NCBI GenBank assembly: GCA_040218735.1
Contig: JAVJQW010000050.1
Coordinates: 288,001-352,000, forward strand
From: Deltaproteobacteria bacterium
GTDB taxonomy: Bacteria; Myxococcota; Kuafuiibacteriia; Kuafuiibacteriales; Kuafuiibacteriaceae
Length of the DNA stretch: 64,000 nucleotides
Reading direction: 5' to 3'
Positions 218 through 15,543 of the stretch are shown here, in pieces; the stretch's first letter is position 1; the number at the start of each line of letters is the position of its first letter. The notes beneath the pieces were generated by a model. The model had not been told where the DNA came from. It saw nothing but the letters and a program-made list of their open reading frames with translations, and searched no databases. Position numbers and translations under genes: made by a program.

Positions 218-3200
218 ATGGCGAGCGGATCCACCAGACCAGCGCAGCTCGGCGGCGACAACGTCATCCGCTTCCTCGACTGCGCACATTTCCTCCAGGA
301 GCTCGCCGGGAACCTCGGTCGAGGACGTGCCCTCGTGCGCACGCGCCGGAGCTTCGAGCTGGGCGAGCGCTTCACCGTGGACGTCGAGGCGCCGGGGGTG
401 GCGTGGCGCGTCGAGGTCGACGTGCGCGTCGTCTTCTCCCGCAGCGGGTTCGTCGGTCTGGAGCTCGAGCGCTTCGACGAGGCGCTCTCCGCGCTGGATC
501 GGCTCGGGGAGGCCGCAGAGCGCGCGGACGACGACGTCGAGGACGAACGACCGCCCGTACCTACCGCGCCCGGGCCGGCCGTGCTCAGCGCCGAGAAGAC
601 CCTCGTCGCCCCCAACCCGGTGATGAACCTCGGCGATGCGTTCACGCCGCTGGGCGATCCACCGCGGACCGGCGAGGCGCAGATCCACATCCGCGAGGAG
701 GACGAAGCCGAGACCGGTGAGTTCCCCATCCTCCCCGGTGATCCCGTCCCGGATCCCGCGGAGACCGGATCCGTGCGGGTGCCCAACCGCGCGGCGACGA
801 TCGTCGAGACCGACCTCGTCGCCGCACCGCCGACGAACCGGCGACGACGCCCGCGGGTCTCGACACCCCCGGAGCGCGGCCTCTCGGATCCCGCGCCCGG
901 CGGTCGGCCGCGCCCCCGGGATCGGATCGACACTTCGACGCAGGACTCGGTCGACATCCCGACCGGTGACGTCCCGGATCCCGCGGAGCACGCGACGCGT
1001 TCGTTGCCGGCCGCGCGACCGGACGCGCCGGCGGCGCCGTCGTCTCGACCCGACGTCCCCATGGCGCCCTCGCTCGCGCTCGACACGAGCGTGCCCATCG
1101 CCCCGTCGCGCAGCGCGCCGCCGCCGGACAGCACCACGGTCGCGTCGGAGAGCTCACGTCCTCGCGCCGCGACCGTGCAGGCGCGGACGGAGTCGCTGTC
1201 GAACTACGAGATCCCTCCGCCGGAGCTCGGCGGATCGGCGATCGTGATGAACCCGCTGCTCGAGGCCGCGCCGGCGGAGGCCACCGCCGACGACGTCGAC
1301 GCGCGCATCATGGAGCCGCCATCGGCGGACGCGGACGTCACGTCCGACGACGTCGACGCTCAAGCCCCGACCCCTGAGGCGACGCCGACGCCCGCGCCGA
1401 GCCTCTCGGACGACCTCGACCTCGACGTGCCGAGCCTCCCCGCGCCCGACGCGGTCCCCGTCGACAACCTCGAAGCGCTCGAGGACGACGACGTGCGGCT
1501 CCCGCGGGTGACCGAGGATGGCCGGGTCGATCTCGCGGACCCCGCGGACCTGCTCGCGCTCTACCTCGGCCAGATTCGGCACGGCACGCTGACGCTCTAC
1601 GGGTCGCTGACCAAGGACGCCGGCGACACGGTGCGGCTCACCATCGAGGGCCCCAACGCGGTCGAGATCGAGGCCCTCGTGATGGCGCGCGTGGGGCCGT
1701 GGTTCACGTTCGCCGTGCCGGACCCTCGCCCGGTCGAGGCCGTGTTGAGCGCGAACGTCGTCCATTGGAAAGAATCCATTGAAGCGCTCGCCGAGAACTA
1801 CCTCGAGGAGAGCGACGAACGGCGCCGCGAAATCGCCGAGCCGGAGCCCGAGCCGTCGCTCGAGGAGAGCGCGACGGCGGACGACTCCGCGCCGCCCCCG
1901 CCCGAGGACCCGATCGTCCCGCCGCCGCCGATCGAGGTGACCGCGGACGACGTCGAGGAGGAGGAGCCGGTGGTCCTCGTTCCGGCGGCGCCCCCGGAGC
2001 CGGAGCCGGAGCCCGAGCCCGAACCCGAGCCGGAGCCCGAGCCCGAGCCGGAACCGGAGCCCGAGCCCGAGGGGGATCCGGATCGCGCGCCGCGCGTGCC
2101 GAAGCTCGACGGGACGAACGTGCGCTTCGATCACACGATCGATCTCGAGCACGAGCTGAAGGTGAACCTCGCGAACGGCGGGCTGTTCGTCGAGGCGGCC
2201 CCCATCCCGATCCGCGAGCGGCGGCGCCTGAAGATCCACATCGGCGACAAACCCACCGGCGTCACCATCGAAGCCGACGTCGTGTTCGCGAGCGGCGGCA
2301 AGGTCGGCTTCTCCGTCCCCGCGTCGGCCGAGGCGCAGACCCAGCTGGAGGAGTACCTCCGCACCGGGACCGCGCAGCCCAGCTCCACGCCGCTGCCGAG
2401 TGAGTCCCCGGTGCCCACCTCCGGGACCCCCGAGCCGCTCCCGCCCGAGCGCGAGGCCTCGGTCGGTGGCGCCTTCGGTGGTGACCTCCTCGCGCCGCTG
2501 TCGATCTCCCAGATCCTCGGGCTGGAGCAGAAACGCGCGTCGTCGACCGCGGACCTCGAGAAGACCTCGGCGGTGCAGCTGATCGAGTACCTCGTCCGTC
2601 AGGGCGAAAAGGGTGTGCTCATGATCCGCGGCCCGCAGCGCACCCAGACGATCTGGTTCCACGGCGGCAGCGTCGCGTACATCCTCGACGAGCCCTTCGA
2701 CGAGGCCACGAGCCTCGGCCGCGTCCTCATCACCCAAAAGAAGCTCAACGACGCCGCGCTGCGCGAGGGCCTCGAGAAGGCGAAGGCGAGCAAGAAGCCC
2801 CTCGGCCGCACGCTCGTCCTCCTCGGCACGATTCGAAAAGCGGAGCTCACCGCGGCGCTCCGCGAGCAGGCGCGCCTCAAGATGGACTACACGTTCGCGA
2901 CGAAGTCCGGGCACTTCGAGTTCGGCCCCTGGCAGGAGCCGCCCGGCAACGCCGACCTCGTCGTGACCAAGGGCCTCGGTCTCCTCGCGCGGTACCTCCG
3001 CAGCCGCTACGACGAGTACAACTACCAAGAGCTCGAAGCGATCTTCGGCGCCAACATGAACCGGCGCGTCGAGCACGAGACCGACTTCGAGAGCATCGCG
3101 ACGAGCCTTCAACTCCAACCCAAGGAGCTTCGATTCCTCGAGCTGTCCCTCGACGGCCACCGTACGATCCACGACGCGGTCCTCGGCAGCCCCGCCGGTC

Positions 3201-3760
3201 GCCTCGGCTCACTCCGCCTGGTCGGCATGTGCCTCAGCATGGCGCTGATCCGCTTCTCGGACGGCAACGCCGTTCGGCGCGAGAAGACGCAGGTCGGCCG
3301 CGAGCCGAGCGCCTTCGTCCGCGTGAAGAACGAGCTGGACGAACGCCTCACGCTGCTCGAGGGCATGAACCACTTCGAGGTGCTCGGCGTGCACTGGTCC
3401 GCGCACCACCGCAACTACCGCGAGGCCTACGACAACGCGAAGCGCGAGTTCAACCTGCGCCGCTCGCCCTACAAGGACGCGCCGGACGACGTGAAGAAGA
3501 AGGTCCAGCGCATCGTGCAGATCCTCGACCAGAGCTACACGACCCTCAACGACGCCACCCAGCGCGTCTCCTACCGCAAGCAGCTCTTCGACAAGACCGA
3601 ACGCCAGTACGCCGCCGAGATGCTCGTGAAGCAGGGCGAGGTCGCGCTCATGCGCGGCGACCGCGTCGGCGCCATCGAAGCCCTGGAGACCGCGGTCGAG
3701 CTCGACCCCTCGACCCGCAACCGCAACCTCCTCATGAGCGCCCGCGAAGGCCGCCGGTAG
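218..3760 (+). CDS. Multidomain protein: PilZ-like domains, Pro/acidic linkers, DUF4388/MshEN-like region, J-like domain lacking HPD, C-terminal TPR-like helix
   Basis: PilZ-like segments (NLGRGRALV..VVFSRSGFVGLE; NLANGGLFV..VVFASGGKVGFS); DUF4388-like GVLMIRG..TIWFHGGSVAYI..SLGRVL; J-like NHFEVLGV..YREAY..SYTTLND..R..Y. Confidence 0.75.
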   Translation: MASGSTRPAQLGGDNVIRFLDCAHFLQELAGNLGRGRALVRTRRSFELGERFTVDVEAPGVAWRVEVDVRVVFSRSGFVGLELERFDEALSALDRLGEAAERADDDVEDERPPVPTAPGPAVLSAEKTLVAPNPVMNLGDAFTPLGDPPRTGEAQIHIREEDEAETGEFPILPGDPVPDPAETGSVRVPNRAATIVETDLVAAPPTNRRRRPRVSTPPERGLSDPAPGGRPRPRDRIDTSTQDSVDIPTGDVPDPAEHATRSLPAARPDAPAAPSSRPDVPMAPSLALDTSVPIAPSRSAPPPDSTTVASESSRPRAATVQARTESLSNYEIPPPELGGSAIVMNPLLEAAPAEATADDVDARIMEPPSADADVTSDDVDAQAPTPEATPTPAPSLSDDLDLDVPSLPAPDAVPVDNLEALEDDDVRLPRVTEDGRVDLADPADLLALYLGQIRHGTLTLYGSLTKDAGDTVRLTIEGPNAVEIEALVMARVGPWFTFAVPDPRPVEAVLSANVVHWKESIEALAENYLEESDERRREIAEPEPEPSLEESATADDSAPPPPEDPIVPPPPIEVTADDVEEEEPVVLVPAAPPEPEPEPEPEPEPEPEPEPEPEPEPEGDPDRAPRVPKLDGTNVRFDHTIDLEHELKVNLANGGLFVEAAPIPIRERRRLKIHIGDKPTGVTIEADVVFASGGKVGFSVPASAEAQTQLEEYLRTGTAQPSSTPLPSESPVPTSGTPEPLPPEREASVGGAFGGDLLAPLSISQILGLEQKRASSTADLEKTSAVQLIEYLVRQGEKGVLMIRGPQRTQTIWFHGGSVAYILDEPFDEATSLGRVLITQKKLNDAALREGLEKAKASKKPLGRTLVLLGTIRKAELTAALREQARLKMDYTFATKSGHFEFGPWQEPPGNADLVVTKGLGLLARYLRSRYDEYNYQELEAIFGANMNRRVEHETDFESIATSLQLQPKELRFLELSLDGHRTIHDAVLGSPAGRLGSLRLVGMCLSMALIRFSDGNAVRREKTQVGREPSAFVRVKNELDERLTLLEGMNHFEVLGVHWSAHHRNYREAYDNAKREFNLRRSPYKDAPDDVKKKVQRIVQILDQSYTTLNDATQRVSYRKQLFDKTERQYAAEMLVKQGEVALMRGDRVGAIEALETAVELDPSTRNRNLLMSAREGRR
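1994..2071 (+). repeat. (CCS GAR)x13 coding repeat encoding a (Pro-Glu)13 spacer
   Basis: ccggag/cccgag/cccgaa/ccggaa units read directly. Confidence 0.9.
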
Positions 3761-3785
3761 CCCACGGCGCCCGACATTCCCTCCG

Positions 3786-5420
3786 CTACAGCTGCGCGAG
3801 CAGGGACGTCTCGAACCACCCGCTCGTGTCGCCCTTCACGGCGTCCTGCAGCGACTCGCCGTACATCGCCTCGTAGGCCTTGGCCGTGGCCGCCAGCTGG
3901 CCCTTGCTCCGCTTCCCGAGGATCCGGATCAACGCCGCCTCGTCCGTGCCCCACCCGTCGATCGCCTGGTGCAGCGCGACGGCGTCGCGCGTCGCCTGGG
4001 CCTGGTCCACGGTGCCGCTCTCGTCGCGGTTCCCGCTCGCGAGCGTGAGGAGCATCGTCTCGAGGTCGCCGCTCGTGTCGCCCTTGATCGCGTCGTCGAG
4101 CGACTCCCCGAACATCTCCTGGTACGCCGAGCGAATCGCGCGGATCTCCCGGTTCGTCCGGTTCGAGAGCACGTCGATCAGCTTCTGCTCGTCCGTGCCC
4201 AGCCCGTCGATCGCCTCGTGCAGCGCAACCGCATCGCGCGTCGCCTTGCCCTTGTCGACCCGCGGCGCACCGCCGGCCGTCATCTGCCCCTGCAGTCGCC
4301 CGTTCGAGCGGCGCGCCGCGAGCTCGGCGCGCAGGTCGACGCGCTTCGGCGCCGCCTTCTTCGGCGCGGTGTCCGCGCGCTTGAGCTGCGCCAGCAGCGA
4401 GTCCTCGAAGTCACCGCTGGTGTCGCCCTTGATCGCGTCCTCCAGCGACTCGCCGTACATCTCCTGGTACGCCTTCGCGATCGCCTTCAGCTGCGGGCCG
4501 CTCCGTCCGCTGATGATGCGGTTGAGCGTCGCCTCGTCGGTGCCCCACCCGTCCATCGCCTCGTGCAGCGCCGCCGCGTCGCGCGTGGCCGCGTTCTCGT
4601 CGACCTTCCCCGACTCGTCCCGGTTTCCGCGGAGCATCGACAAGAGTGAGTCCTCGAAGTCACCGCTGGTGTCGCCCTTGATCGCGTCCTCCAGCGACTC
4701 GCCGTACATCTCCTGGTACGCCGCCTTGATCGCGTTGATCTGCGTGTTGCTGCGGCCGCTGAGGATGCGCGTCAGCGCGGCCTCGTCCGTGCCCCACCCG
4801 TCCATCGCCTGGTGCAGCGCGACGGCGTCGCGGGTCGCCTGCGCCTGGTCCGCCTTCTGCGCGACCTTCGCTTGCTGCGCCTGCGCGGCGACGGGGATCG
4901 GCGCCGCGCGCACCGCGGGGCGCTGCGCCGGCGCGCGGCTCGGCGCCTGACGCTGGTACAGCTGCGCGAGGCGATCGAAGTCGACCGCGCCCTGCCCGCC
5001 GATCGACTGGTAGAACGGTTGGTAGAACTGCGCCGCGGTGATCAGCTGCGTCAGCATCTCGGCCGCCGCCTGCGCCGTGCGCGGGTCGACGCCGAACGCG
5101 ATGAAGAACCGCGCGAAGTCGGTGGTGTCGAGCGCGCCGAGGCGCGGGTCGTAGAACGGGATCTGCTGATTCGGACGCGGCGCTCGACCGCGGAGGTCGC
5201 GCGCGATGGCGTCGCCGAGCGGGGCCGCCTCGATCTGATCGAAGCCGGACTGCGTGAGGATTACGACGTAGTGCTGGCGCTCGGCTTCGGAGCCACCCAT
5301 GCGAATGCGCAGGTCGTCGGCGCGCGCGGGGGAGCCGGCCAGGCGCGCGTTCGCGGCGGAGTGGCTGGAGCGGGCGTGGACGCTGCGAGGGTTGAGTGCG
5401 GTGTGCGTTTCGATGGCCAT
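3786..5420 (-). CDS. Annexin-family protein with four annexin repeats and a ~195-aa N-terminal region
   Basis: Four G[WL]GTDE..Y..M[YF]GESL.DA[IV]KGDTSG repeats; GxGT-X38-D spacing counted in repeat 1; AGGAGG RBS 4 nt upstream of ATG. Confidence 0.92.
   Translation of the reverse strand: MAIETHTALNPRSVHARSSHSAANARLAGSPARADDLRIRMGGSEAERQHYVVILTQSGFDQIEAAPLGDAIARDLRGRAPRPNQQIPFYDPRLGALDTTDFARFFIAFGVDPRTAQAAAEMLTQLITAAQFYQPFYQSIGGQGAVDFDRLAQLYQRQAPSRAPAQRPAVRAAPIPVAAQAQQAKVAQKADQAQATRDAVALHQAMDGWGTDEAALTRILSGRSNTQINAIKAAYQEMYGESLEDAIKGDTSGDFEDSLLSMLRGNRDESGKVDENAATRDAAALHEAMDGWGTDEATLNRIISGRSGPQLKAIAKAYQEMYGESLEDAIKGDTSGDFEDSLLAQLKRADTAPKKAAPKRVDLRAELAARRSNGRLQGQMTAGGAPRVDKGKATRDAVALHEAIDGLGTDEQKLIDVLSNRTNREIRAIRSAYQEMFGESLDDAIKGDTSGDLETMLLTLASGNRDESGTVDQAQATRDAVALHQAIDGWGTDEAALIRILGKRSKGQLAATAKAYEAMYGESLQDAVKGDTSGWFETSLLAQL
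4399..4722 (-). repeat. 75-bp identical direct repeat (4399-4473 and 4648-4722) between annexin repeats 2 and 1
   Basis: gagtcctcgaagtcaccgctgg...ctcctggtacgcc occurs twice, period 249 bp (83 aa). Confidence 0.85.
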
Positions 5421-5451
5421 GAATCCTCCTGGATGGTGTGCCCGATGCCTT

Positions 5452-5467
5452 TACAAGGTCCGGGCCA
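5452..5467 (-). promoter_or_regulatory. Putative sigma54 (-24/-12) promoter of the annexin gene
   Basis: Minus strand TGGCCCG-GACC-TTGTA vs consensus TGGCACG-N4-TTGCW (GT rather than GC at -12); adjacent to a sigma54 activator gene. Confidence 0.6.
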
Positions 5468-5630
5468 AGCCGCAGGAGGACGCGCGGCGACGCTCGAGAT
5501 CCCCGGTCGGGAGCCCTCTAGGGATCGCGGGGGCTCCCGAATTGGGAACCCCTGCGCGACAGCGTGGTCGGCGTGGGCGGCACCCCTCCACCGCCGGTCC
5601 ACAGCGCGCGGCGAGGTGCCATCGCCTGCT

Positions 5631-7367
5631 ATGTTAGTGCCGTTGAGCTTCGAGACGTTACCGCCGACCGAGCGCGCGCCGGTGTCGGCCGAGCGCAAGA
5701 CGGACGCTCCGCTCTCCCTGCTCGTCATCGTCGAGGAGGGCGTGTCGACGCACCCGCTGACGGTGGGAATGCAGCTGTCGATCGGGCGTGAGCCCACCGT
5801 CGACGTCCACGTCGACGATCCGCTCGTCTCCCGCGAGCACGCGCGCCTGTACGTGCGCGACATCGTCGAGCTCGAAGATCTGGGGAGCGCCAACGGCACG
5901 AAGATCCGCGGGCAGCGCGTCGTCGCGCACGAGAAGACGCCGATAGGCGCCGGGCAGGTCGTGGAGATCGGCTCGGCGATCCTCGTGCTGCAGGAGCAGA
6001 GCACGGTCGCCCGGAGACGCCGCCTGTGGTCCCACGGCTACTTCGAGGTTCGCCTCGAAGAGGAGTGCGCGCGCAACGCACGCGGGCGTCGTTCGCCGTT
6101 CGCCGTGCTGCGCGTGCGCGTCGACGCCGCGGACGACGAGACGCTCGTGCAAGACACGTTGACGAAGGCGCTCCGCTCCTCGGACGTCGTCGCGAGCTAC
6201 GCCCCCGGTGAGTACGAGCTGCTCCTCGTCGACACCGCCGCGTCGCGCGCGGAGCGCATCGCCGATCGCATCTCGGACCGCTTCGTCGAGGCCGGCCACC
6301 GCATCGAGATCGGCATCGCGTCGTTCCCCCGCGATGGCCTCACCGCGGACGCGCTGATCGCCCACGCGGGGATCGACCTCGCGCTCGACGAAGACACGGC
6401 GCCCTCCTCGGCCGCGGTCGTCGAGGACCCGGCGATGGTCGATCTGTACCGCGTCGTCGATCGCGTCGCGCAGGGGACGATCAGCGTCCTGCTCGTCGGC
6501 GAGACCGGCGTCGGCAAGGAGGTCGTCGCCGAGGCGCTGCACCGCCGCTCACCGCGCGTCGACGCCCCGTTCGTGCGCCTCAACTGCGCCGCGCTCACGC
6601 AGACCCTCGTGGAGTCGGAGCTGTTCGGCCACGTCCGCGGCGCGTTCACCGGCGCCGAACAAGACAAACGCGGCCTGATCGAAGCCGCCGACGGCGGCAC
6701 GGTGTTCCTCGACGAGGTCGGCGAGCTCCCGCTGCCCACGCAAGCTACCTTGCTCCGCGTCCTCGAGCGCCGCGAGGTCCAGCGCGTGGGGAGCCTGGAG
6801 CCGCGCCCGGTCGACGTGCGCTTTGTCTCCGCCACGAACCGCGACCTCGAGGAGGAGATCGCGCGCGGGCGTTTCCGCGAGGATCTCTTCTACCGCCTCA
6901 ACGGCGTCACCATCGCGATCCCTCCGCTCCGCGATCGCCCCGGGGAGATCACATTGCTCGCGAGGATGTTCGTGGATCGCGTCAGCCACGAGCTCGGCGT
7001 GGAGGCCCCCGCGCTCTCCACGCGCGCCGAAGCGCTCCTCGGCGGCTACCACTGGCCGGGCAACATCCGCGAGCTCCGCAACATGATCGAGCGCGCGGTC
7101 CTGCTCTGCACGGGAGACGTCCTCGACGCTGAGCACCTCCCCGTCGACAAACTCTCCGCGACCTGGTCGAGCACTCCCGCGCGCCCTCGCCGACCGCGTG
7201 CGACGTCGGCGAGCCCGGAGCACGACGAGCGCAAACAGCGCATCCTCGACGCGCTGGACGCCTGCGCCGGCAACCAGACCCGCGCCGCCGAACACCTCGG
7301 CGTCTCCCGACGCACGCTCACGAAGTGGCTCGGCCGCTACGACATCCCCCGGCCCCGCAAACGCTGA
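5631..7367 (+). CDS. Sigma54-dependent transcriptional activator: FHA + degenerate GGDEF-like + AAA+ + Fis-type HTH
   Basis: FHA GR..SREH..GSANGT; GETGVGKE, ESELFGH..GAFTGA, FLDEVGE, FREDLFYRL, WPGNIRELRN; GNQTRAAEHLG. Start is a best guess inside ORF 4812..7367. Confidence 0.93.
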   Translation: MLVPLSFETLPPTERAPVSAERKTDAPLSLLVIVEEGVSTHPLTVGMQLSIGREPTVDVHVDDPLVSREHARLYVRDIVELEDLGSANGTKIRGQRVVAHEKTPIGAGQVVEIGSAILVLQEQSTVARRRRLWSHGYFEVRLEEECARNARGRRSPFAVLRVRVDAADDETLVQDTLTKALRSSDVVASYAPGEYELLLVDTAASRAERIADRISDRFVEAGHRIEIGIASFPRDGLTADALIAHAGIDLALDEDTAPSSAAVVEDPAMVDLYRVVDRVAQGTISVLLVGETGVGKEVVAEALHRRSPRVDAPFVRLNCAALTQTLVESELFGHVRGAFTGAEQDKRGLIEAADGGTVFLDEVGELPLPTQATLLRVLERREVQRVGSLEPRPVDVRFVSATNRDLEEEIARGRFREDLFYRLNGVTIAIPPLRDRPGEITLLARMFVDRVSHELGVEAPALSTRAEALLGGYHWPGNIRELRNMIERAVLLCTGDVLDAEHLPVDKLSATWSSTPARPRRPRATSASPEHDERKQRILDALDACAGNQTRAAEHLGVSRRTLTKWLGRYDIPRPRKR

Positions 7368-7383
7368 GGTATGATCGCCGCGC

Positions 7384-8715
7384 GTGCGGCGCTTCGGTGA
7401 GTTCGCGCTGCTCGAGCGCCTCGAGCAGGGATCGGGCGGGACGGTCCACCTCGCCCGTCGCATCGGCGCGCCCCAGGACCACGACCCGCTCCTCGTGGTG
7501 AAGCGCCTCCACTCGGACCTCATGGAGCACGACACCTTCGTGCGCCGCTTCTCCCACGAAGCGCTGATCGCGGTGTCGGTGAAGAGCCCGAACGTCGTGG
7601 TCGTCGAGGACGTCGGGCGCGTGGGCGACGAGCCGTACATCGCGATGCACTTCGTGGAGGGGCTGTCGCTGTACGAAGTGCTCGAGCGCGTCACCGCCGC
7701 GGGCTACGGCATCCCGCTCGACGTCACCGTCGCGATCGTCGCGGGGTGCCTGGGCGGCCTCCGCGCGCTGCACGACGCCATCCACCCGGACACCCTCGAA
7801 CCCCTCGGCGTGGTCCACCGCGACATCTCCCCGAAGAACATCGTGCTCGCGTTCGACGGGCACCCCGTGCTGATCGATCTGGGCCTCGGGAAGTCGAATG
7901 TCGCCGACTGGCAGACCGCGGCCGGCGACGTCCTCGGGTCCCTCGGCTACATGGCGCCCGAGCAGGTCCTCGGCGACCGCGTCGATCACCGCGCGGATCT
8001 GTTCTCGCTGAGCGCCGTGTTCTACGAGCTGCTCACGCTCGAGCCGTACGTCCCGCGCGGCGCGCGGCGCGACATGCTGCGGCGGATGGAGTCGCCGCCC
8101 CCGGCCCGCCTCGACCGCGAAGACGTGCCGATGCCGATCCGCGCCCTCCTCGAGTCGGGCCTGTCCTACGACCCGAACCAGCGCCCGGCGAGCGCCGCGG
8201 AGATGTACGATCGGCTCACCTCGGTCATCGCCCCCGCGACACCGAAGCTCGTGGCCGCGTTCGTCCGTGACCTCGTCGGCGAAGACCTGCGCTCGACCGC
8301 GAAGAACGTCGACGACCTGAAGTCGCAGCCGATCGCGTTCCCCGACGACACCCCCTACGAAGGCACGGTGGTGATCGCGCGACGCGAGTCCGCGGTGAAC
8401 ACCATCGACGACCTCGAACCCGAGAGCGACGACCCGACCGCGCTCGTCGTCGCCCACGATCGCCCCAAGATCGCGGACGCCACGCTGCGTGCGCCGCCCG
8501 ACACCGTCCTCGGAGACGACACCGACAGCCTCCTGCAGGCGCAGACCCGTATCACGGCACGGCCGCGAGCGACCGGAGTACCGTGGGCGGTCGTGCTGCT
8601 GTTGATGGTGCTCGTGGCGGCCGCGACGGTGTTCGTGGATCGCTTCGTCATCGGCGTCGAAGCGCCGGCGCCGACCGCCGAGCCTCCGCCCACCGTCTCC
8701 GCGACGCCGCGGTGA
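7384..8715 (+). CDS. Hanks-type Ser/Thr protein kinase with C-terminal TM helix
   Basis: VVKRL, HRDISPKN, DLG, GSLGYMAPE, DLFSL; TM WAVVLLLMVLVAAATVFV. Confidence 0.92.
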   Translation: MRRFGEFALLERLEQGSGGTVHLARRIGAPQDHDPLLVVKRLHSDLMEHDTFVRRFSHEALIAVSVKSPNVVVVEDVGRVGDEPYIAMHFVEGLSLYEVLERVTAAGYGIPLDVTVAIVAGCLGGLRALHDAIHPDTLEPLGVVHRDISPKNIVLAFDGHPVLIDLGLGKSNVADWQTAAGDVLGSLGYMAPEQVLGDRVDHRADLFSLSAVFYELLTLEPYVPRGARRDMLRRMESPPPARLDREDVPMPIRALLESGLSYDPNQRPASAAEMYDRLTSVIAPATPKLVAAFVRDLVGEDLRSTAKNVDDLKSQPIAFPDDTPYEGTVVIARRESAVNTIDDLEPESDDPTALVVAHDRPKIADATLRAPPDTVLGDDTDSLLQAQTRITARPRATGVPWAVVLLLMVLVAAATVFVDRFVIGVEAPAPTAEPPPTVSATPR

Positions 8716-8719
8716 AGCG

Positions 8720-9481
8720 TCACATCCCGGACTCGCCGGACTTCTTCATGGTGTTGGTCTGCACCATCTCGCTCTCGAGCTCGGCGACGCGCTGCTTGGC
8801 CTTCTTCGCCTGGTCGGGCGACGGGCGCCCGGCGAGCACGTCGTTCCACGCTTCGAGCTTCGTCTGACGATCGATGCGCGCGATTTTGTCGACGGACATC
8901 GCCTCCGTGTAGAGCTGCTTCTGGAGGTCGTTGATCCGCTTCAGCGCCGCGCGAGCCTCCGGCCCCTTCGCGACCCAAGTCAGCACCTGCTCCCACGCGC
9001 GGATGCGATCCACCTTGGGTTTGCGAGCGCGCTCGACGCCCTCCGCCTCGGCGACGAGCCGCTTGGTCTCCATCGAGGTCCAGTGCGCGACGCGCTGCTT
9101 CGCCTTCCGTGCTTCCTTGCTCTTCGGGTAGAGGTCCCTAACCTCCGTCCACTTCGTGATCTTGTCGCGCGGTGACAGGTCGTCGTCGGAGTCGGCGCGT
9201 GTCGCGGCGTCGACGACGCGCAGGCGCGCCGCGTTCTTCCAGCGATCCATCGCGCGCTTCGCGTAGCCGATCTGCTCCTGCGCGCGATCGATGAAGGCCT
9301 TCCACTCGCGGAGCTTCTCTTCGTCGGAGACCTCCGGATCCTGTTCGAGCTTGCGCAGCCCGTAGAAGGTCAGGACGGTGCCCGGCTTCTTGACGACCTT
9401 CTTGGCGTCGCCGTCTTCGCCGGCGGCCAGCGCCGGCGTGGCGATCGCGAGGCTCAGCGCGATGACGAGCGTTCGATTCAT
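8720..9481 (-). CDS. Secreted helical-repeat hypothetical protein
   Basis: Signal peptide ending PALA; AAGGAG RBS; four K[LI]xxW-type repeats. Confidence 0.75.
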   Translation of the reverse strand: MNRTLVIALSLAIATPALAAGEDGDAKKVVKKPGTVLTFYGLRKLEQDPEVSDEEKLREWKAFIDRAQEQIGYAKRAMDRWKNAARLRVVDAATRADSDDDLSPRDKITKWTEVRDLYPKSKEARKAKQRVAHWTSMETKRLVAEAEGVERARKPKVDRIRAWEQVLTWVAKGPEARAALKRINDLQKQLYTEAMSVDKIARIDRQTKLEAWNDVLAGRPSPDQAKKAKQRVAELESEMVQTNTMKKSGESGM

Positions 9482-9483
9482 GT

Positions 9484-9957
9484 TCACTCCTTGGGGCCGC
9501 GGAACGAGAAGTTCGGCTGGAACATGATGAACCCGTCCGGCTTCTTGGCCTGGGGTTCCTTCGGCTTCTCATTCGGCCCGGGGATGTAGAACTTGCCTTC
9601 GACCCCGACGGGGATCTTCAGCGAGAACTCCTGGTCGACCTTGTTGGGCCGCGGGAACTTCCAGCGCTTCGCGACGCTCTCCAGACACAGCCGGAGGTGA
9701 CGCGCGCCCTCCAGCGAGGTGTCGATGCGTGTCTTGGTGACCGCGCCCGACTCGCCCACCTTCACGACCACCGTGGCGACACCCTGCGTCTTCGGGTTTT
9801 CGTTGTGGTAGCGCGCGTTGCACGCGTCGATCGCCGGCCCGGTGGCGTTGAGCGTGCTGCGCACCTTCTCCATGGCCTGCTCCTTGGTCATGACCTCTTC
9901 GGCCGGAGGTTCGGCCGCGACGAGCGCGAGCGTGACGAGCAAGGCGGAAGCGTTCAC
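9484..9957 (-). CDS. AgmX/PglI C-terminal (TonB-C-like) domain protein
   Basis: AIDACNARY..NPKTQGVATVVVKVGESGAV..LRLCLESVAKRWKFPRP; GTGA overlap with upstream gene. Confidence 0.75.
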   Translation of the reverse strand: MNASALLVTLALVAAEPPAEEVMTKEQAMEKVRSTLNATGPAIDACNARYHNENPKTQGVATVVVKVGESGAVTKTRIDTSLEGARHLRLCLESVAKRWKFPRPNKVDQEFSLKIPVGVEGKFYIPGPNEKPKEPQAKKPDGFIMFQPNFSFRGPKE

Positions 9958-10838
9958 GCCGAAGAGGCTAACCCCGCGGTGTCCGGAAACAAAAGCCCCG
10001 CGGGCCCGAGGGCCTCCAGATCCGCCGGGAGGGGCGCGTCGAAGGTCCGGCCTTCGGGGAGTATCAGGCGCGCCGCGTGGAGGAGGGGCCGAGAGAAGTC
10101 CACGATCGTCCCGCCGAGGCTCCCCGCCGCGTGGCCGCCGTAGAGCACGTCCCCCGCGATCGGGGTCCCGACGTGGCTCAGGTGGACGCGAATCTGGTGC
10201 GTCCGGCCCGTACGCGGGCGCGCGACCACCGCCGCCAGCCCGTCGACGGTCGCCACCACCTCCAGGTCGGTCTGCGACGGCTTGCCCTTGGGGCTGACCG
10301 CCTTCGCGCGCGGGCGGCGCCGATCCGCGCCGATCGGGGCGTCCACCGTCCCCGGCGGGGGCGCACCTTCGGTCACGGCGAAGTAGACCTTGTGGACGCG
10401 CTGCTCCGCGAACGCCCGCGACAGGTCCGCCGCGGCCTTCTTCGTCTTGGCGAACGCCAGGGCGCCCGTGGTGTCGACGTCCAGGCGGTGCACCACGTGG
10501 ACCTTTCGCTCCGATAGAATCCATTCGAGTGAACGACGGGGGCTCGTCTCCGTCTCGTTGACGTGGACGCCGGCCGGTTTGTTCACCACGACGATCGTGT
10601 CGTCCTCGAAGAGGATGGGCACCTCGACGGGCGCCTCGGGCTCCGCACCTTCGTGGACCACGACGCGCGAGCCGGCCCTGAGGCTCCTGCCCGCGACGCG
10701 ACAGCGCTTTCCGTCGACGAACACCGCGCCGTCGCCGATCAACACACGGGCGCGGCGGCGCGAGATGCCCTCCACGGCGGCAGCGATCGCTTTGTCGAGG
10801 CGGTCCGTGTCCGCCTCGACGCCGAAGACGTGTTTCAC
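9954..10838 (-). CDS. RluA-family RNA pseudouridine synthase
   Basis: S4-like N-terminus, VNKPAG, HRLDVDTTG, TGRTHQIRVH, GDVLYG. Confidence 0.95.
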   Translation of the reverse strand: MKHVFGVEADTDRLDKAIAAAVEGISRRRARVLIGDGAVFVDGKRCRVAGRSLRAGSRVVVHEGAEPEAPVEVPILFEDDTIVVVNKPAGVHVNETETSPRRSLEWILSERKVHVVHRLDVDTTGALAFAKTKKAAADLSRAFAEQRVHKVYFAVTEGAPPPGTVDAPIGADRRRPRAKAVSPKGKPSQTDLEVVATVDGLAAVVARPRTGRTHQIRVHLSHVGTPIAGDVLYGGHAAGSLGGTIVDFSRPLLHAARLILPEGRTFDAPLPADLEALGPAGLLFPDTAGLASSA

Positions 10839-14382: not shown

Positions 14383-15084
14383 CTAGAAGACCAACTGCAT
14401 CGTCGCGGTGGTCGCGAACATCGTGACGTCCGGTCCGTGGTGCATCGACTTCGGCGACACCATCGCGCGGAGGCCGAAGCCGATGCCGTTCAGGTCGAAG
14501 CCCATCGCGAGGCTCGGCGCCCAGCCCGAGTAGCCCTTGTTGTCCGCGGGGTCGAAGAAGATCACGTGGCCGAAGCCGCTGTCGCCGTGGAGCGTCAGCC
14601 CGCCGACCTGGTGGCGGTACCCGCCGGAGACGCCGGTGTGGATCGTGGTGATCGAGCCGAGCGGGCTGCCGAGGTAGAGCACGCCCGAGATGAACAGCGT
14701 CAGCGTCAGGAACGTGTACGCGAAGATGCTCACGAGGGCGCGCGCGACCGTCGTGCCGTTTTCGTTGCCGCGCCCGACCCACGACGTGACGTCCTTGAAG
14801 CCGTTCACGCTGAACTCACCGACGTCGTAGCCGGCCTTCGCCCACTCCGTCGTGCGCTCGAAGTCGGTGAGCGTGACGTCGCCGACGAAGCGAAGCGTGA
14901 AGCCAGACTCGTGGTGCACGTGCACCTCGCCCGCGACGCCGACGCCGGGTTGCACGACGTCGCCGAGCACGTACATCGCGGCGCCCGCGCCGAACGCGCC
15001 GCCGCCCCGGAAGCGCGTCTGGCCGAACGCCGTGCCCGAGTAACAGAGGATCAGGAGGCCGGCGATCGAGGGGGCGACGCGCAT
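14383..15084 (-). CDS. Hypothetical outer-membrane protein
   Basis: Signal peptide, Gly/aromatic beta-strands, terminal Phe (MQLVF). Confidence 0.6.
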   Translation of the reverse strand: MRVAPSIAGLLILCYSGTAFGQTRFRGGGAFGAGAAMYVLGDVVQPGVGVAGEVHVHHESGFTLRFVGDVTLTDFERTTEWAKAGYDVGEFSVNGFKDVTSWVGRGNENGTTVARALVSIFAYTFLTLTLFISGVLYLGSPLGSITTIHTGVSGGYRHQVGGLTLHGDSGFGHVIFFDPADNKGYSGWAPSLAMGFDLNGIGFGLRAMVSPKSMHHGPDVTMFATTATMQLVF

Positions 15085-15135: not shown

Positions 15136-15513
15136 TCAGTCGGTCTTCATCGTGACCTTGGCGACGTGCGTCGCACCGAGGATGACGGTCTCGCCGCCCG
15201 TCGGACGGAGCCGCGCCTGCATCGAGAAGTCGCGCTGGTCGGAAGCGCCGTGACGCTGCGCGGTGACGTTCACGGAGAGGAGCCCCCTCGCCTCGCGGCA
15301 GACGTCGAGCTCGTAGCGGTCGTTGGGCGTGCCTTGTTTCATGCGGCTGCACTCACCTTCGACGCGCACCGTGAGTGGGACGTCGTCGACCGTAACGGTC
15401 ACCGCGAGTGGTCCGCCGATGCGCGGGCCTTCCGTGGACGCGTCGCAGAGGGTGGCCGCCGCGGCGGCCGTCGCGCCGAGCGCGATGAATGCAGAGAGGA
15501 TGAGGTACTTCAT
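15136..15513 (-). CDS. Small secreted hypothetical protein
   Basis: MKYLILSAFIALGATAAAA signal peptide; three Cys. Confidence 0.7.
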   Translation of the reverse strand: MKYLILSAFIALGATAAAAATLCDASTEGPRIGGPLAVTVTVDDVPLTVRVEGECSRMKQGTPNDRYELDVCREARGLLSVNVTAQRHGASDQRDFSMQARLRPTGGETVILGATHVAKVTMKTD

Positions 15514-15527
15514 GGCGCGCGTCGAAG

Positions 15528-15543
15528 AGCAACGCGCGTGCCA
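15528..15543 (-). promoter_or_regulatory. Consensus sigma54 promoter
   Basis: TGGCACG-CGCG-TTGCT, a perfect match, 14 nt upstream of ATG 15513. Confidence 0.8.

Follow-up and report, generated by a model that had tools for sequence, protein, structure and literature searches.

A bacterial annexin encoded in the genome of a soil-type myxobacterium is probably switched on by a membrane-anchored kinase and a phosphothreonine-reading transcriptional activator. The three genes form a self-contained, divergent unit at positions 3786-8715 of the window (the whole 64,000-nt stretch of DNA that was analysed), with the annexin on the minus strand, an enhancer-binding protein (EBP) followed by the Ser/Thr kinase on the plus strand, and convergent genes flanking both ends (Table 1). 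Taken as a whole, an annexin module controlled by sigma-54, the EBP and the kinase is the best explanation that we can offer for what the sequence shows, namely the genes present, their motifs and folds, the palindromes and the promoter-like site, and the conservation of these in one ortholog, and we give it a little less than an even chance of being right. We know of no established function for any bacterial annexin. A gene of this kind with an apparently private regulatory pair and a readable promoter would allow its trigger to be found with a simple reporter fusion, which makes the module a rare experimental handle on the role of annexins in bacteria.

Table 1. Features of the annexin module in window coordinates.
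Feature	Position	Strand	Description
Annexin CDS	3786-5420	-	544 aa; Pfam Annexin E=9.8e-102, 4 stretches
Shine-Dalgarno AGGAGGA	5424..5430	-	read from the sequence; 3 nt before the annexin ATG at 5420
Candidate sigma-54 promoter	5452..5467	-	TGGCCC-N5-TTGTA, TGGCCCGGACCTTGTA; 2 mismatches to consensus TGGCACGNNNNTTGCW
Candidate activator site B	5497..5515	.	AGATCCC-CGGTC-GGGAGCC, 2 mismatches; centre ~65 bp upstream of the predicted start site
Candidate activator site A	5532..5550	.	GGCTCCC-GAATT-GGGAACC, 7-N5-7 palindrome; centre ~100 bp upstream of the predicted start site
EBP CDS	5631-7367	+	578 aa, or 574 aa from TTG 5643
Ser/Thr kinase CDS	7384-8715	+	443 aa; Pkinase aa 10-269, Pfam E=1.3e-24

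The locus and its annexin

The initial annotation of this DNA had proposed a signalling circuit running from the kinase through the activator to the annexin. All of its elements were found where it had placed them, and both the gene identities and the geometry hold, with the annexin divergent from the activator and the kinase 16 nt past the latter. No further EBP or kinase was found among 38 other ORFs of the window, and Rfam gave no matches (E<=1) between 3500 and 9000. PADLOC, which left the annexin without a match and otherwise recognised only generic domains, AAA+ (RtcR_PspF2) and kinase (PD-T4-6), does not support a reading of the locus as a defence system. Sequence comparisons were made with one orthologous locus, L001, from a close relative (EBP 86-87% at the amino-acid level).

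The annexin begins with a basic N-terminal region (aa 1-190) matching no known family, which is followed by two two-repeat modules (aa 191-346 and 390-543) with a 43-aa basic linker between them. As expected of annexins, GxGTDE is found in each of the four repeats, followed some 38 residues later by an acidic residue. The repeats are 59-80% identical to each other in protein and 69-84% in DNA, a divergence too large for Tandem Repeats Finder, which gave 0 rows for the gene. In the AF2 model, the two-repeat modules reach pLDDT values of 80-90, and residues 1-67 and 350-386 stay below 50; as for a single four-repeat core disc, the model gives two confident two-repeat modules joined by the disordered 43-aa linker, with a pTM of 0.34. 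The sequence shows no hydrophobic signal at the N terminus, Pfam finds no toxin or enzyme domain fused to the annexin, and the module does not include a secretion gene. The strong ribosome-binding site previously assigned to the gene was recovered as AGGAGGA, at 5430-5424 of the minus strand, and is identical in L001.

For the N-terminal region, the ESM Atlas gave no usable feature match (all structural rows with TM<=0.34), and an exhaustive profile search of 1.84 billion proteins yielded 17 matches at E<=1e-3, some of them stand-alone proteins of 144-270 aa. None of the 14 new matches has a Pfam family over the matching region. Two of these 14 bear unrelated domains elsewhere (SLH, TGL). The N-terminal domain is shared by P0005 and P0006, metagenome-derived annexin homologues with 42-44% identity.

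The divergent promoter region

The candidate sigma-54 promoter sits 21 nt ahead of the annexin start codon, with GG at 5466/5465 and a -12 dinucleotide GT rather than GC, so that the C of this GC is one of its two mismatches to the consensus. Transcription is predicted to start near 5441, leaving a leader of about 21 nt. Counted over the whole window, promoter matches are no more frequent than expected by chance: there are 4 sites of such quality against 6.42 +/- 2.29 in shuffled sequences, 90 out of 100 of which hold at least 4. For the correct strand of the 210-bp region, arithmetic from the shuffle counts gives about 0.01 such sites expected by chance. In a footprinting that compares two sequences, those of the window and L001, the 16-mer is identical at 15 of 16 positions, with its sole change in the spacer (binomial p=0.006 for a neutral identity of 0.63). 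It lies inside a block, 5475-5421, which is identical at 48 of 55 positions (p=6e-5); the corresponding values are 0.59-0.67 at the four-fold degenerate sites of the EBP, the annexin and the flanking gene, and 31/79 in the distal intergenic region. The -24/-12-like sequence that had been annotated at 5452-5467 is present, in the right position and within conserved DNA. Its unusual -12 TTGT has a precedent, since the sequence upstream of E. coli K-12 pspA, TTGGCACGCAAATTGTAT, bears the same one; we take this to be the sigma-54 promoter of pspA. A scan of positions 3500-9600 found no sigma-70-like promoter.

Between the promoter and the EBP gene there are two tandem candidate activator sites, 35 bp apart. 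Site A is the sole zero-mismatch match to GGYTCCC-N5-GGGARCC in 64 kb, and its counterpart in L001 (GGTTCCC-CAATT-GGGAACC) lies at an equal distance from the ATG. For site B, the half-site nearer site A is kept (GGGAGCC; L001 GGTTCCC, in the annexin orientation), and the one nearer the promoter is degenerate in L001. Three of the 21 half-sites (GGYTCCC/GGGARCC) found in 64 kb fall in the 222-bp intergenic region (Poisson 4e-5, a post hoc value), at 130/118/95 nt from the ATG in the window versus 129/117/96 nt in L001. Overall, the zone with the palindromes is no better conserved than neutral DNA (56/86 identical). A single long palindrome, GGGARCC-N12-18-GGYTCCC, describes the region less well than two 7-N5-7 sites, given a 2-nt difference in arm spacing between the window and L001. 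The protein that binds these palindromes would presumably be the EBP.

The enhancer-binding protein

The EBP comprises an N-terminal tail, an FHA domain, a degenerate GGDEF fold, an AAA+ domain with its lid, and an HTH, a layout common to all homologues inspected (121 aligned out of 468 matches to the N-terminal 262 aa at E<=1e-3), which include a paralog in the same genome, P0152. Its start could be the TTG at 5643, since the L001 frame does not stay open immediately upstream of this TTG. The Sigma54_activat domain (aa 264-428, PF00158, E=1e-67) with an intact GAFTGA, the AAA lid and the HTH_8 (aa 535-570, E=1.4e-10) are those of an NtrC-type EBP; no NCBIfam equivalog scored above its cut-off. 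The GETGVGKE, GAFTGA and DE motifs are invariant or conserved in at least 90% of 42 aligned sequences, with the AAA+/GAFTGA motifs also intact and almost unchanged across the 121 family members. The same family supports the earlier claim of an intact FHA domain (aa 50-114, PF00498, E=5e-15), whose predicted phosphothreonine-binding residues (Gly-Arg, Ser-x-x-His, Asn-Gly) are near-invariant: G52 and H70 occur in 121/121 members, R53, S67 and N88 in 120/121, and R68 in 120-121/121. In the N-terminal tail, T13 is a candidate phospho-site, being Thr in 91/121 and Ser in 9/121.

The region of aa ~128-250 adopts a degenerate GGDEF fold. The AF2 model of aa 120-262 has a pLDDT of 89.8, and the matches listed by Foldseek against the PDB are GGDEF-domain entries (best E=7e-10, TM 0.71-0.75); the Pfam GGDEF profile gives 18.3 bits, under its cut-off of 23.8. 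APGEY stands in place of the catalytic GG(D/E)EF motif, with a family consensus of [GA]-P-G-E-Y, and judging by these residues the domain should not be filed as a cyclase. RSSD occupies the I-site position, whose R-x-x-D is retained (R182 76%, D185 85% of 121). The locus would thus offer a compact case of an FHA domain and a catalytically dead GGDEF fold gating an AAA+ transcription motor.

The kinase

The kinase and the EBP are probably co-transcribed, because only 16 nt, a gap identical in L001, separate the kinase start from the EBP stop. The kinase bears the motifs HRDISPKN, DLG and APE, and 10 aligned relatives all keep the Hanks-type residues K40, E59, D147, N152, D165 (of DLG) and P192/E193. 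The catalytic loop lacks the Lys at D+2 of HRDxKxxN, as do the 15 commonest loop variants, which account for 109 of 120 relatives among the matches listed. We presume that the protein is an active kinase. It had been described as a transmembrane kinase with almost no extracytoplasmic part, in agreement with its single hydrophobic segment (aa 399-417), a C-terminal anchor which is followed by only 26 residues. This short tail is the result of a secondary loss of the extracytoplasmic domain of its relatives. The 26-aa tail is shared by P0242, a metagenome-derived kinase homologue with 70% identity. The linker of ~130 aa contains another candidate phospho-site, T328 (TVVIA), conserved in at least 90% of the 10 aligned relatives, in which V330 and A332 are invariant. 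A complex prediction for the linker (aa 296-350) and the EBP FHA (aa 25-125) gave a score of 0.01 (mark 0.32), which speaks neither for nor against a contact. That the kinase acts on the FHA domain of the EBP is suggested by the adjacency of their genes.

Distribution of the module

The synteny of the three genes in related genomes had been put forward as a test of the circuit, and the outcome is mixed: the arrangement is found in L001 and is not seen in 30 of 31 bacterial annexin loci. The annexin and the EBP/kinase pair occur together in 1/31 loci, hence in very close relatives only, and no EBP lies near the annexin in the remaining 30, within the flanks examined, which are short in several contigs. 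The synteny with L001 does not discriminate, because an unrelated flanking gene is equally conserved there (83%). Upstream of the other 30 annexins, only 3-mismatch sigma-54-like sites were detected, in two loci (L010, L011), both within open frames. The other myxobacterial annexin-domain proteins examined are fusion proteins, 1079-1383 aa long, and none is encoded near an EBP. For the close homologues of the EBP (P0121, 98%) and the kinase (P0241, 94%), a contig of 66,306 nt is listed in both cases. A metagenome-derived annexin 81% identical to that of the window, P0002, is encoded in a 15,845-nt contig, a length given for no EBP or kinase among the 120 matches listed, so the pair is possibly absent from that locus. 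A lineage-specific, psp-like circuit is plausible.

Relation to known systems

A close parallel in layout is the pspF-pspA region of E. coli, where an EBP gene again diverges from its neighbour, the sigma-54-dependent gene of a peripheral membrane-binding protein. Both intergenic regions are short (166 bp in psp, 210 bp in the annexin module) and the candidate annexin promoter has the same unusual -12 as that of pspA, TGGCCC-N5-TTGTA for the annexin and TGGCAC-N5-TTGTA for pspA. However, PspF lacks any regulatory domain, its control being exerted through PspA binding, whereas the EBP described here has an FHA domain, a degenerate GGDEF fold and a dedicated kinase. An annexin takes the place of the PspA/IM30-type coiled coil as effector, and there are no pspBC-like genes. 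The module thus has neither the effector nor the domain-free EBP that define a Psp system, and the resemblance is one of layout and promoter only.

Other parallels concern the regulators. The FHA EBPs of Myxococcus xanthus share with ours the combination of FHA, sigma-54 AAA+ and HTH in a myxobacterium, and Jelsbak, Givskov and Kaiser reportedly proposed in 2005 that they are linked to Hanks-type kinases. In the actinobacterial proteins GarA and OdhI, the FHA domain binds the protein's own tail once a Hanks-type kinase has phosphorylated a Thr there. T13 of the EBP is likewise placed a few tens of residues ahead of the FHA, within a disordered N-terminal tail; GarA and OdhI, in contrast, regulate metabolic enzymes, and the FHA of the EBP sits on an AAA+ transcription motor. 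No literature linking annexins and RpoN in myxobacteria, or dealing with FHA-GGDEF-type EBPs, was found in a search that covered few subscription journals.

As for the annexins themselves, the consulted part of the survey by Kodavali et al. (2014, PMC3894181) describes proteins of 2-5 domains in Haliangium, Corallococcus and Myxococcus, and finds that the neighbourhoods of bacterial annexins offer no general clue to function. Like those in that part of the survey (PMC3894181), the annexin of the window comes from a myxobacterium and has repeats with GxGTD; it differs from them in its compact 2+2 repeats, its own N-terminal domain and its dedicated regulatory pair.

Proposed mechanism and alternatives

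In the proposed mechanism, the annexin would be expressed as a single-gene transcript from the sigma-54 promoter (-24 GG at 5466/5465, -12 TTGT, start near 5441). The divergently encoded EBP would activate this promoter as dimers bound to sites A and B, the tandem palindromes centred at about -100 and -65, with its AAA+ motor gated by the N-terminal module of FHA and degenerate GGDEF. Threonine phosphorylation by the co-transcribed, membrane-anchored and sensor-domain-less kinase would set this gate, T13 of the EBP being a candidate GarA-like switch in cis or in trans and the juxtamembrane T328 of the kinase a candidate docking site. The product would be a cytoplasmic, Ca2+-type four-repeat annexin that binds acidic membrane lipid. 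The sigma-54 dependence of the annexin, the sign of its regulation and any physiological trigger are inferred, and a role in envelope stress may be envisaged for the module. A bolder proposal, to which we assign a low probability, is an annexin-based bacterial membrane repair wired like the phage-shock response. A perturbation of the inner membrane, or the accompanying entry of Ca2+, would be sensed by the anchor-reduced kinase and passed as phosphothreonine to the FHA of the EBP, maybe together with c-di-GMP via the dead GGDEF, resulting in a sigma-54 burst of cytoplasmic annexin that coats and seals the damaged lipid. If true, it would provide a prokaryotic annexin with a physiological role and a regulatory pathway for the first time.

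The promoter itself could be a chance match, the conserved block a promoter of another type or a 5' leader, and the EBP-kinase operon a regulator of distant targets whose adjacency to the annexin is a coincidence within a narrow lineage. The chance-level count of such sites in the window, the GT at -12, a synteny restricted to near relatives whose whole neighbourhood is conserved, and the 30/31 annexin loci without an EBP all fit this idea. We nonetheless find it unlikely, given that strand, spacing to the ATG and conservation all suit a promoter, that the tandem palindromes are as far away as activator sites typically are and keep their position in L001, that the scan gave no sigma-70-like promoter, and that the pspA upstream region has the same TTGT. 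If the annexin does depend on sigma-54 and the EBP, the adjacent kinase might still not be the relevant input. In an 11.5-Mb genome, the FHA could read phosphothreonine from other kinases, or the degenerate GGDEF, possibly binding c-di-GMP, could be the main gate, leaving the co-transcribed kinase with other substrates. The size of the EBP family, with 468 matches and a paralog in the same genome, the I-site-position motif kept by the GGDEF-fold domain, and a PilZ plus an MshE-like c-di-GMP-binding motif in a convergent neighbour gene are in line with such a scheme, but the conserved 16-nt operon junction and the conserved Thr motifs in both proteins make it improbable, as does the usual co-transcription of a bacterial sensor with its cognate regulator.

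Even with the regulation as proposed, the annexin might not protect the cell's own membranes; it could act on the membranes of prey or eukaryotes after export or release, or have a part in development or sporulation. Against eukaryotic annexins, the four repeats reach very high scores (PDB annexin VI, E=3e-90), and some bacterial annexin domains are fused to toxin, lipase or protease domains, according to the part of the survey consulted (Kodavali et al. 2014, PMC3894181). The absence from this annexin of a visible signal or a fused toxin or enzyme domain, and from the module of a secretion gene, renders this alternative very unlikely. On the developmental side, the FHA-type EBPs of Myxococcus are tied to the development of the fruiting body, a link which Jelsbak, Givskov and Kaiser reportedly made in 2005.

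Three features discussed above had been missed by the initial annotation, namely the GGDEF-fold domain of the activator, the secondary loss behind the short tail of the kinase, and the tandem palindromes.

Gene organization

In the window, whose G+C content is ~70%, a three-gene unit made of an annexin, an enhancer-binding protein (EBP) and a kinase is bounded by two convergent genes. The annexin stop lies 25 nt from that of the PilZ/DUF4388 gene and the kinase stop 4 nt from that of its neighbour, so the annexin would be transcribed alone, and the EBP and kinase genes, 16 nt apart, as a two-gene operon. The elements named in the initial annotation were recovered: an annexin with a strong ribosome-binding site (AGGAGGA before the ATG) and a -24/-12-like site, a divergent activator with intact FHA and GAFTGA, and a kinase 16 nt behind it whose membrane segment leaves almost no extracytoplasmic part (26 residues).

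Features of the annexin locus and other elements of the window
Feature	Coordinates	Strand	Description
Flanking gene	218-3760	+	1180-aa PilZ/DUF4388 protein, convergent with annexin
Annexin	3786-5420	-	544 aa; Pfam Annexin E=9.8e-102, four stretches
Candidate sigma-54 promoter	5467-5452	-	TGGCCCGGACCTTGTA; 2 mismatches vs TGGCACGNNNNTTGCW, one at the C of the -12 GC
Candidate site B	5497-5515		7-N5-7 palindrome, 2 mismatches
Candidate site A	5532-5550		7-N5-7 palindrome; sole zero-mismatch match in window
Inverted repeat	5579-5620		GGCACCCCTCC / GGCGAGGTGCC
EBP	5631-7367	+	578 aa; FHA, Sigma54_activat, lid, HTH_8; GAFTGA present
Hanks-type kinase	7384-8715	+	443 aa
Flanking gene	8720-9487	-	no family assigned
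AgmX/PglI frame	9484-10524	-	AgmX/PglI C-terminal domain
Pseudouridine synthase	9954-10838	-	
Secreted-looking protein	14383-15084	-	233 aa
Small ORF	15136-15513	-	begins MKYLILSAFIALGATAAAAA, signal-peptide-like
Perfect sigma-54 consensus	15528-15543	-	TGGCACGCGCGTTGCT

Two long minus-strand frames overlap within 9484-10838(-), and the true start of the AgmX/PglI-domain gene is probably well downstream of the annotated one.

The encoded proteins

All four annexin repeats carry GxGTDE and the downstream acidic residue, and they are 59-80% identical to one another; the ends of repeats 1 and 3 are alike, and so are those of 2 and 4, a pattern suggestive of the duplication of a two-repeat module. 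The AF2 model consists of two confident two-repeat modules with a disordered basic linker of 43 aa (pTM 0.34), and the sequence strongly matches solved eukaryotic annexins (annexin VI, E=3e-90). No family was found for the basic N-terminal 190 aa, a region for which 1.84 billion representatives yielded 17 relatives, including some small proteins that stand alone. Bacterial annexins, Myxococcales included, are already known, and their gene neighbourhoods gave no general functional clue, according to Kodavali et al. 2014 (PMC3894181).

The kinase keeps the invariant Lys, Glu, HRD Asp, Asn, DLG Asp and APE. Its catalytic loop, HRDISPKN, is without the usual Lys two residues past the Asp, which is also absent from the 15 commonest loop variants (109 of 120 relatives). 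A membrane segment is predicted in 54 of the 60 closest relatives, of which 51 extend 124-199 residues past it and end in a conserved helical domain (84 residues in the relative P0243). A tail of 26 residues is confined to the window kinase itself and to P0241 and P0242, the two relatives nearest to it; the near-absence of an outside part, as read from these tails, is therefore a secondary loss and not a family trait. In the relatives P0243-P0300, this C-terminal extracytoplasmic domain of ~65 aa, missing from the window kinase (tail 8635-8715), follows a proline-rich spacer; most of these proteins have no Pfam family listed beyond two kinase domains. The kinase linker contains a conserved TVVIA motif (T328 at least 90%, V330 and A332 invariant, in 10 sequences). 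FHA domains prefer pT-x-x-hydrophobic, a preference with which T328 would be compatible.

The N-terminal 262 residues of the EBP match 468 proteins at E<=1e-3, typically with 40-50% identity over 80-98% of the region, one of them being a paralog in the same genome. The FHA residues that bind phosphothreonine show almost no variation across 121 aligned family members. The domain between FHA and AAA+ scores 18.3 bits for Pfam GGDEF (cut-off 23.8), and the Foldseek PDB matches listed for its AF2 model (aa 120-262, pLDDT 89.8) are GGDEF-domain entries (best E=7e-10, TM 0.71-0.75). APGEY (family consensus [GA]PGEY) replaces the catalytic motif, so the domain is not a cyclase; R-x-x-D is kept at the inhibitory-site position (R182 in 76% and D185 in 85% of the 121). 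The disordered tail before FHA holds a conserved T13 in LPPTERA (Thr in 91/121, Ser in 9/121), resembling the GarA/OdhI switch, a known FHA system. Among the papers listed by literature searches, none was relevant to FHA/GGDEF/sigma-54 EBPs, or to annexin with RpoN in myxobacteria.

Candidate promoter and activator sites

The predicted annexin start, near 5441, lies 21 nt before the ATG and directly ahead of AGGAGGA, and a consensus scan of 3500-9600 gave no sigma-70-like promoter. In E. coli K-12, the pspF-pspA intergenic DNA has TTGGCACGCAAATTGTAT upstream of pspA, which we take to be its sigma-54 promoter, with TTGT as at the annexin site; the annexin module resembles the psp locus in layout and promoter without belonging to the Psp system.

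The half-site GGYTCCC/GGGARCC occurs 3 times in the annexin-EBP intergenic region and 21 times in the whole 64-kb window, where 0.06-0.07 copies are expected in 222 bp; the Poisson figure of about 4e-5 is post hoc, because the motif was derived from this same region. The copies make up candidate sites A and B, whose centres are 35 bp from each other, at about -100 and -65 relative to the predicted start. NtrC-type activators usually have dimer sites arranged in tandem.

Comparison with other genomes

Scanning the annexin alignment against 185,579 species-representative genomes yielded 31 loci, in which the EBP and kinase were sought by tblastn. Kinase matches occur in three (L001, L007 and L009) and the EBP in L001 only, a 6,089-nt MAG contig (EBP 86%; kinase 83% over the 77 aa present; PilZ/DUF4388 gene 83%); the other myxobacterial matches checked were not orthologs but fusion proteins of 1079-1383 aa with annexin domains. 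Co-occurrence of annexin and EBP is thus confined to close relatives, and the proposed synteny holds, among the 31 loci, in L001 alone, where conservation of the entire neighbourhood leaves it without weight of its own.

Footprinting is more telling for this locus. With four-fold degenerate sites 59-67% identical between window and L001 (the neutral level), the promoter 16-mer keeps 15/16 positions, its lone change falling in the spacer, and the block 5475-5421 keeps 48/55 (binomial p=6e-5 at 0.63) vs 31/79 in distal intergenic DNA. Overall, the palindrome zone does not exceed the neutral level (56/86). Its half-sites lie 129/117/96 nt from the annexin ATG in L001 vs 130/118/95 in the window; in L001 the two arms of site A match perfectly (GGTTCCC-CAATT-GGGAACC), and site B has a degenerate half on its promoter side.

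The L001 annexin (2174-3568, P0003, 464 aa) is shorter by exactly one repeat length, the gap lying between repeats 1 and 2; either the in-frame deletion is genuine, or near-identical repeats collapsed in the MAG assembly. Annexin repeats are paired with Ser/Thr phospho-signalling a second time, and in a different way, in L007 (6456-12880, from a Myxococcaceae MAG): an annexin-domain protein of 1079 aa and a kinase-TPR protein of 1010 aa are encoded divergently there, and the C terminus of the former has a weak SpoIIE/PP2C-like match (23.3 bits; cut-off 25).

A possible regulatory circuit

Our preferred reading, held tentatively and at somewhat less than an even chance, is a lineage-specific circuit in which the tail-anchored kinase would produce phosphothreonine, this would engage the FHA/GGDEF-fold-gated EBP, and the EBP would activate the annexin from its sigma-54 promoter. 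The circuit first proposed is partly supported: the sequence shows gene content, motifs and conservation, and we infer the steps beyond these. An envelope-stress role would be an attractive hypothesis, by likeness to eukaryotic annexins and Psp.

The true input may be another kinase or c-di-GMP, and a connection of the locus with c-di-GMP is hinted at by the PilZ/MshE-like neighbour and the RxxD of the dead GGDEF domain; we consider such an input unlikely. A chance promoter match and a coincidental adjacency of annexin and EBP-kinase seem about as improbable. Matches of this quality are not above chance window-wide (4 found vs 6.42 +/- 2.29 in shuffles), but arithmetic from the shuffles predicts only ~0.01 for the correct strand of the intergenic region (210 bp). 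In a near-identical MAG, the EBP P0121 (98%) and kinase P0241 (94%) are both listed with a 66,306-nt contig; for the annexin P0002 (81%), no EBP or kinase is among the matches listed from a same-sized contig, a weak point against the circuit reading. Export of the annexin, whose sequence has no apparent signal peptide or membrane segment, or a role in development, is less probable still.

Other observations

The PilZ/DUF4388 product also bears an MshE-like c-di-GMP-binding motif, and its gene adjoins the annexin in L001 too. The perfect sigma-54 consensus lies directly upstream of the small ORF, with no EBP gene near it within the window; its predicted start is only ~4 nt before the ATG, which would leave the mRNA almost without a leader, and the secreted-looking protein comes next. 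The inverted repeat shortly before the EBP start codon has 11-nt arms that are 82% complementary and 20 nt apart, an arrangement not kept in L001.
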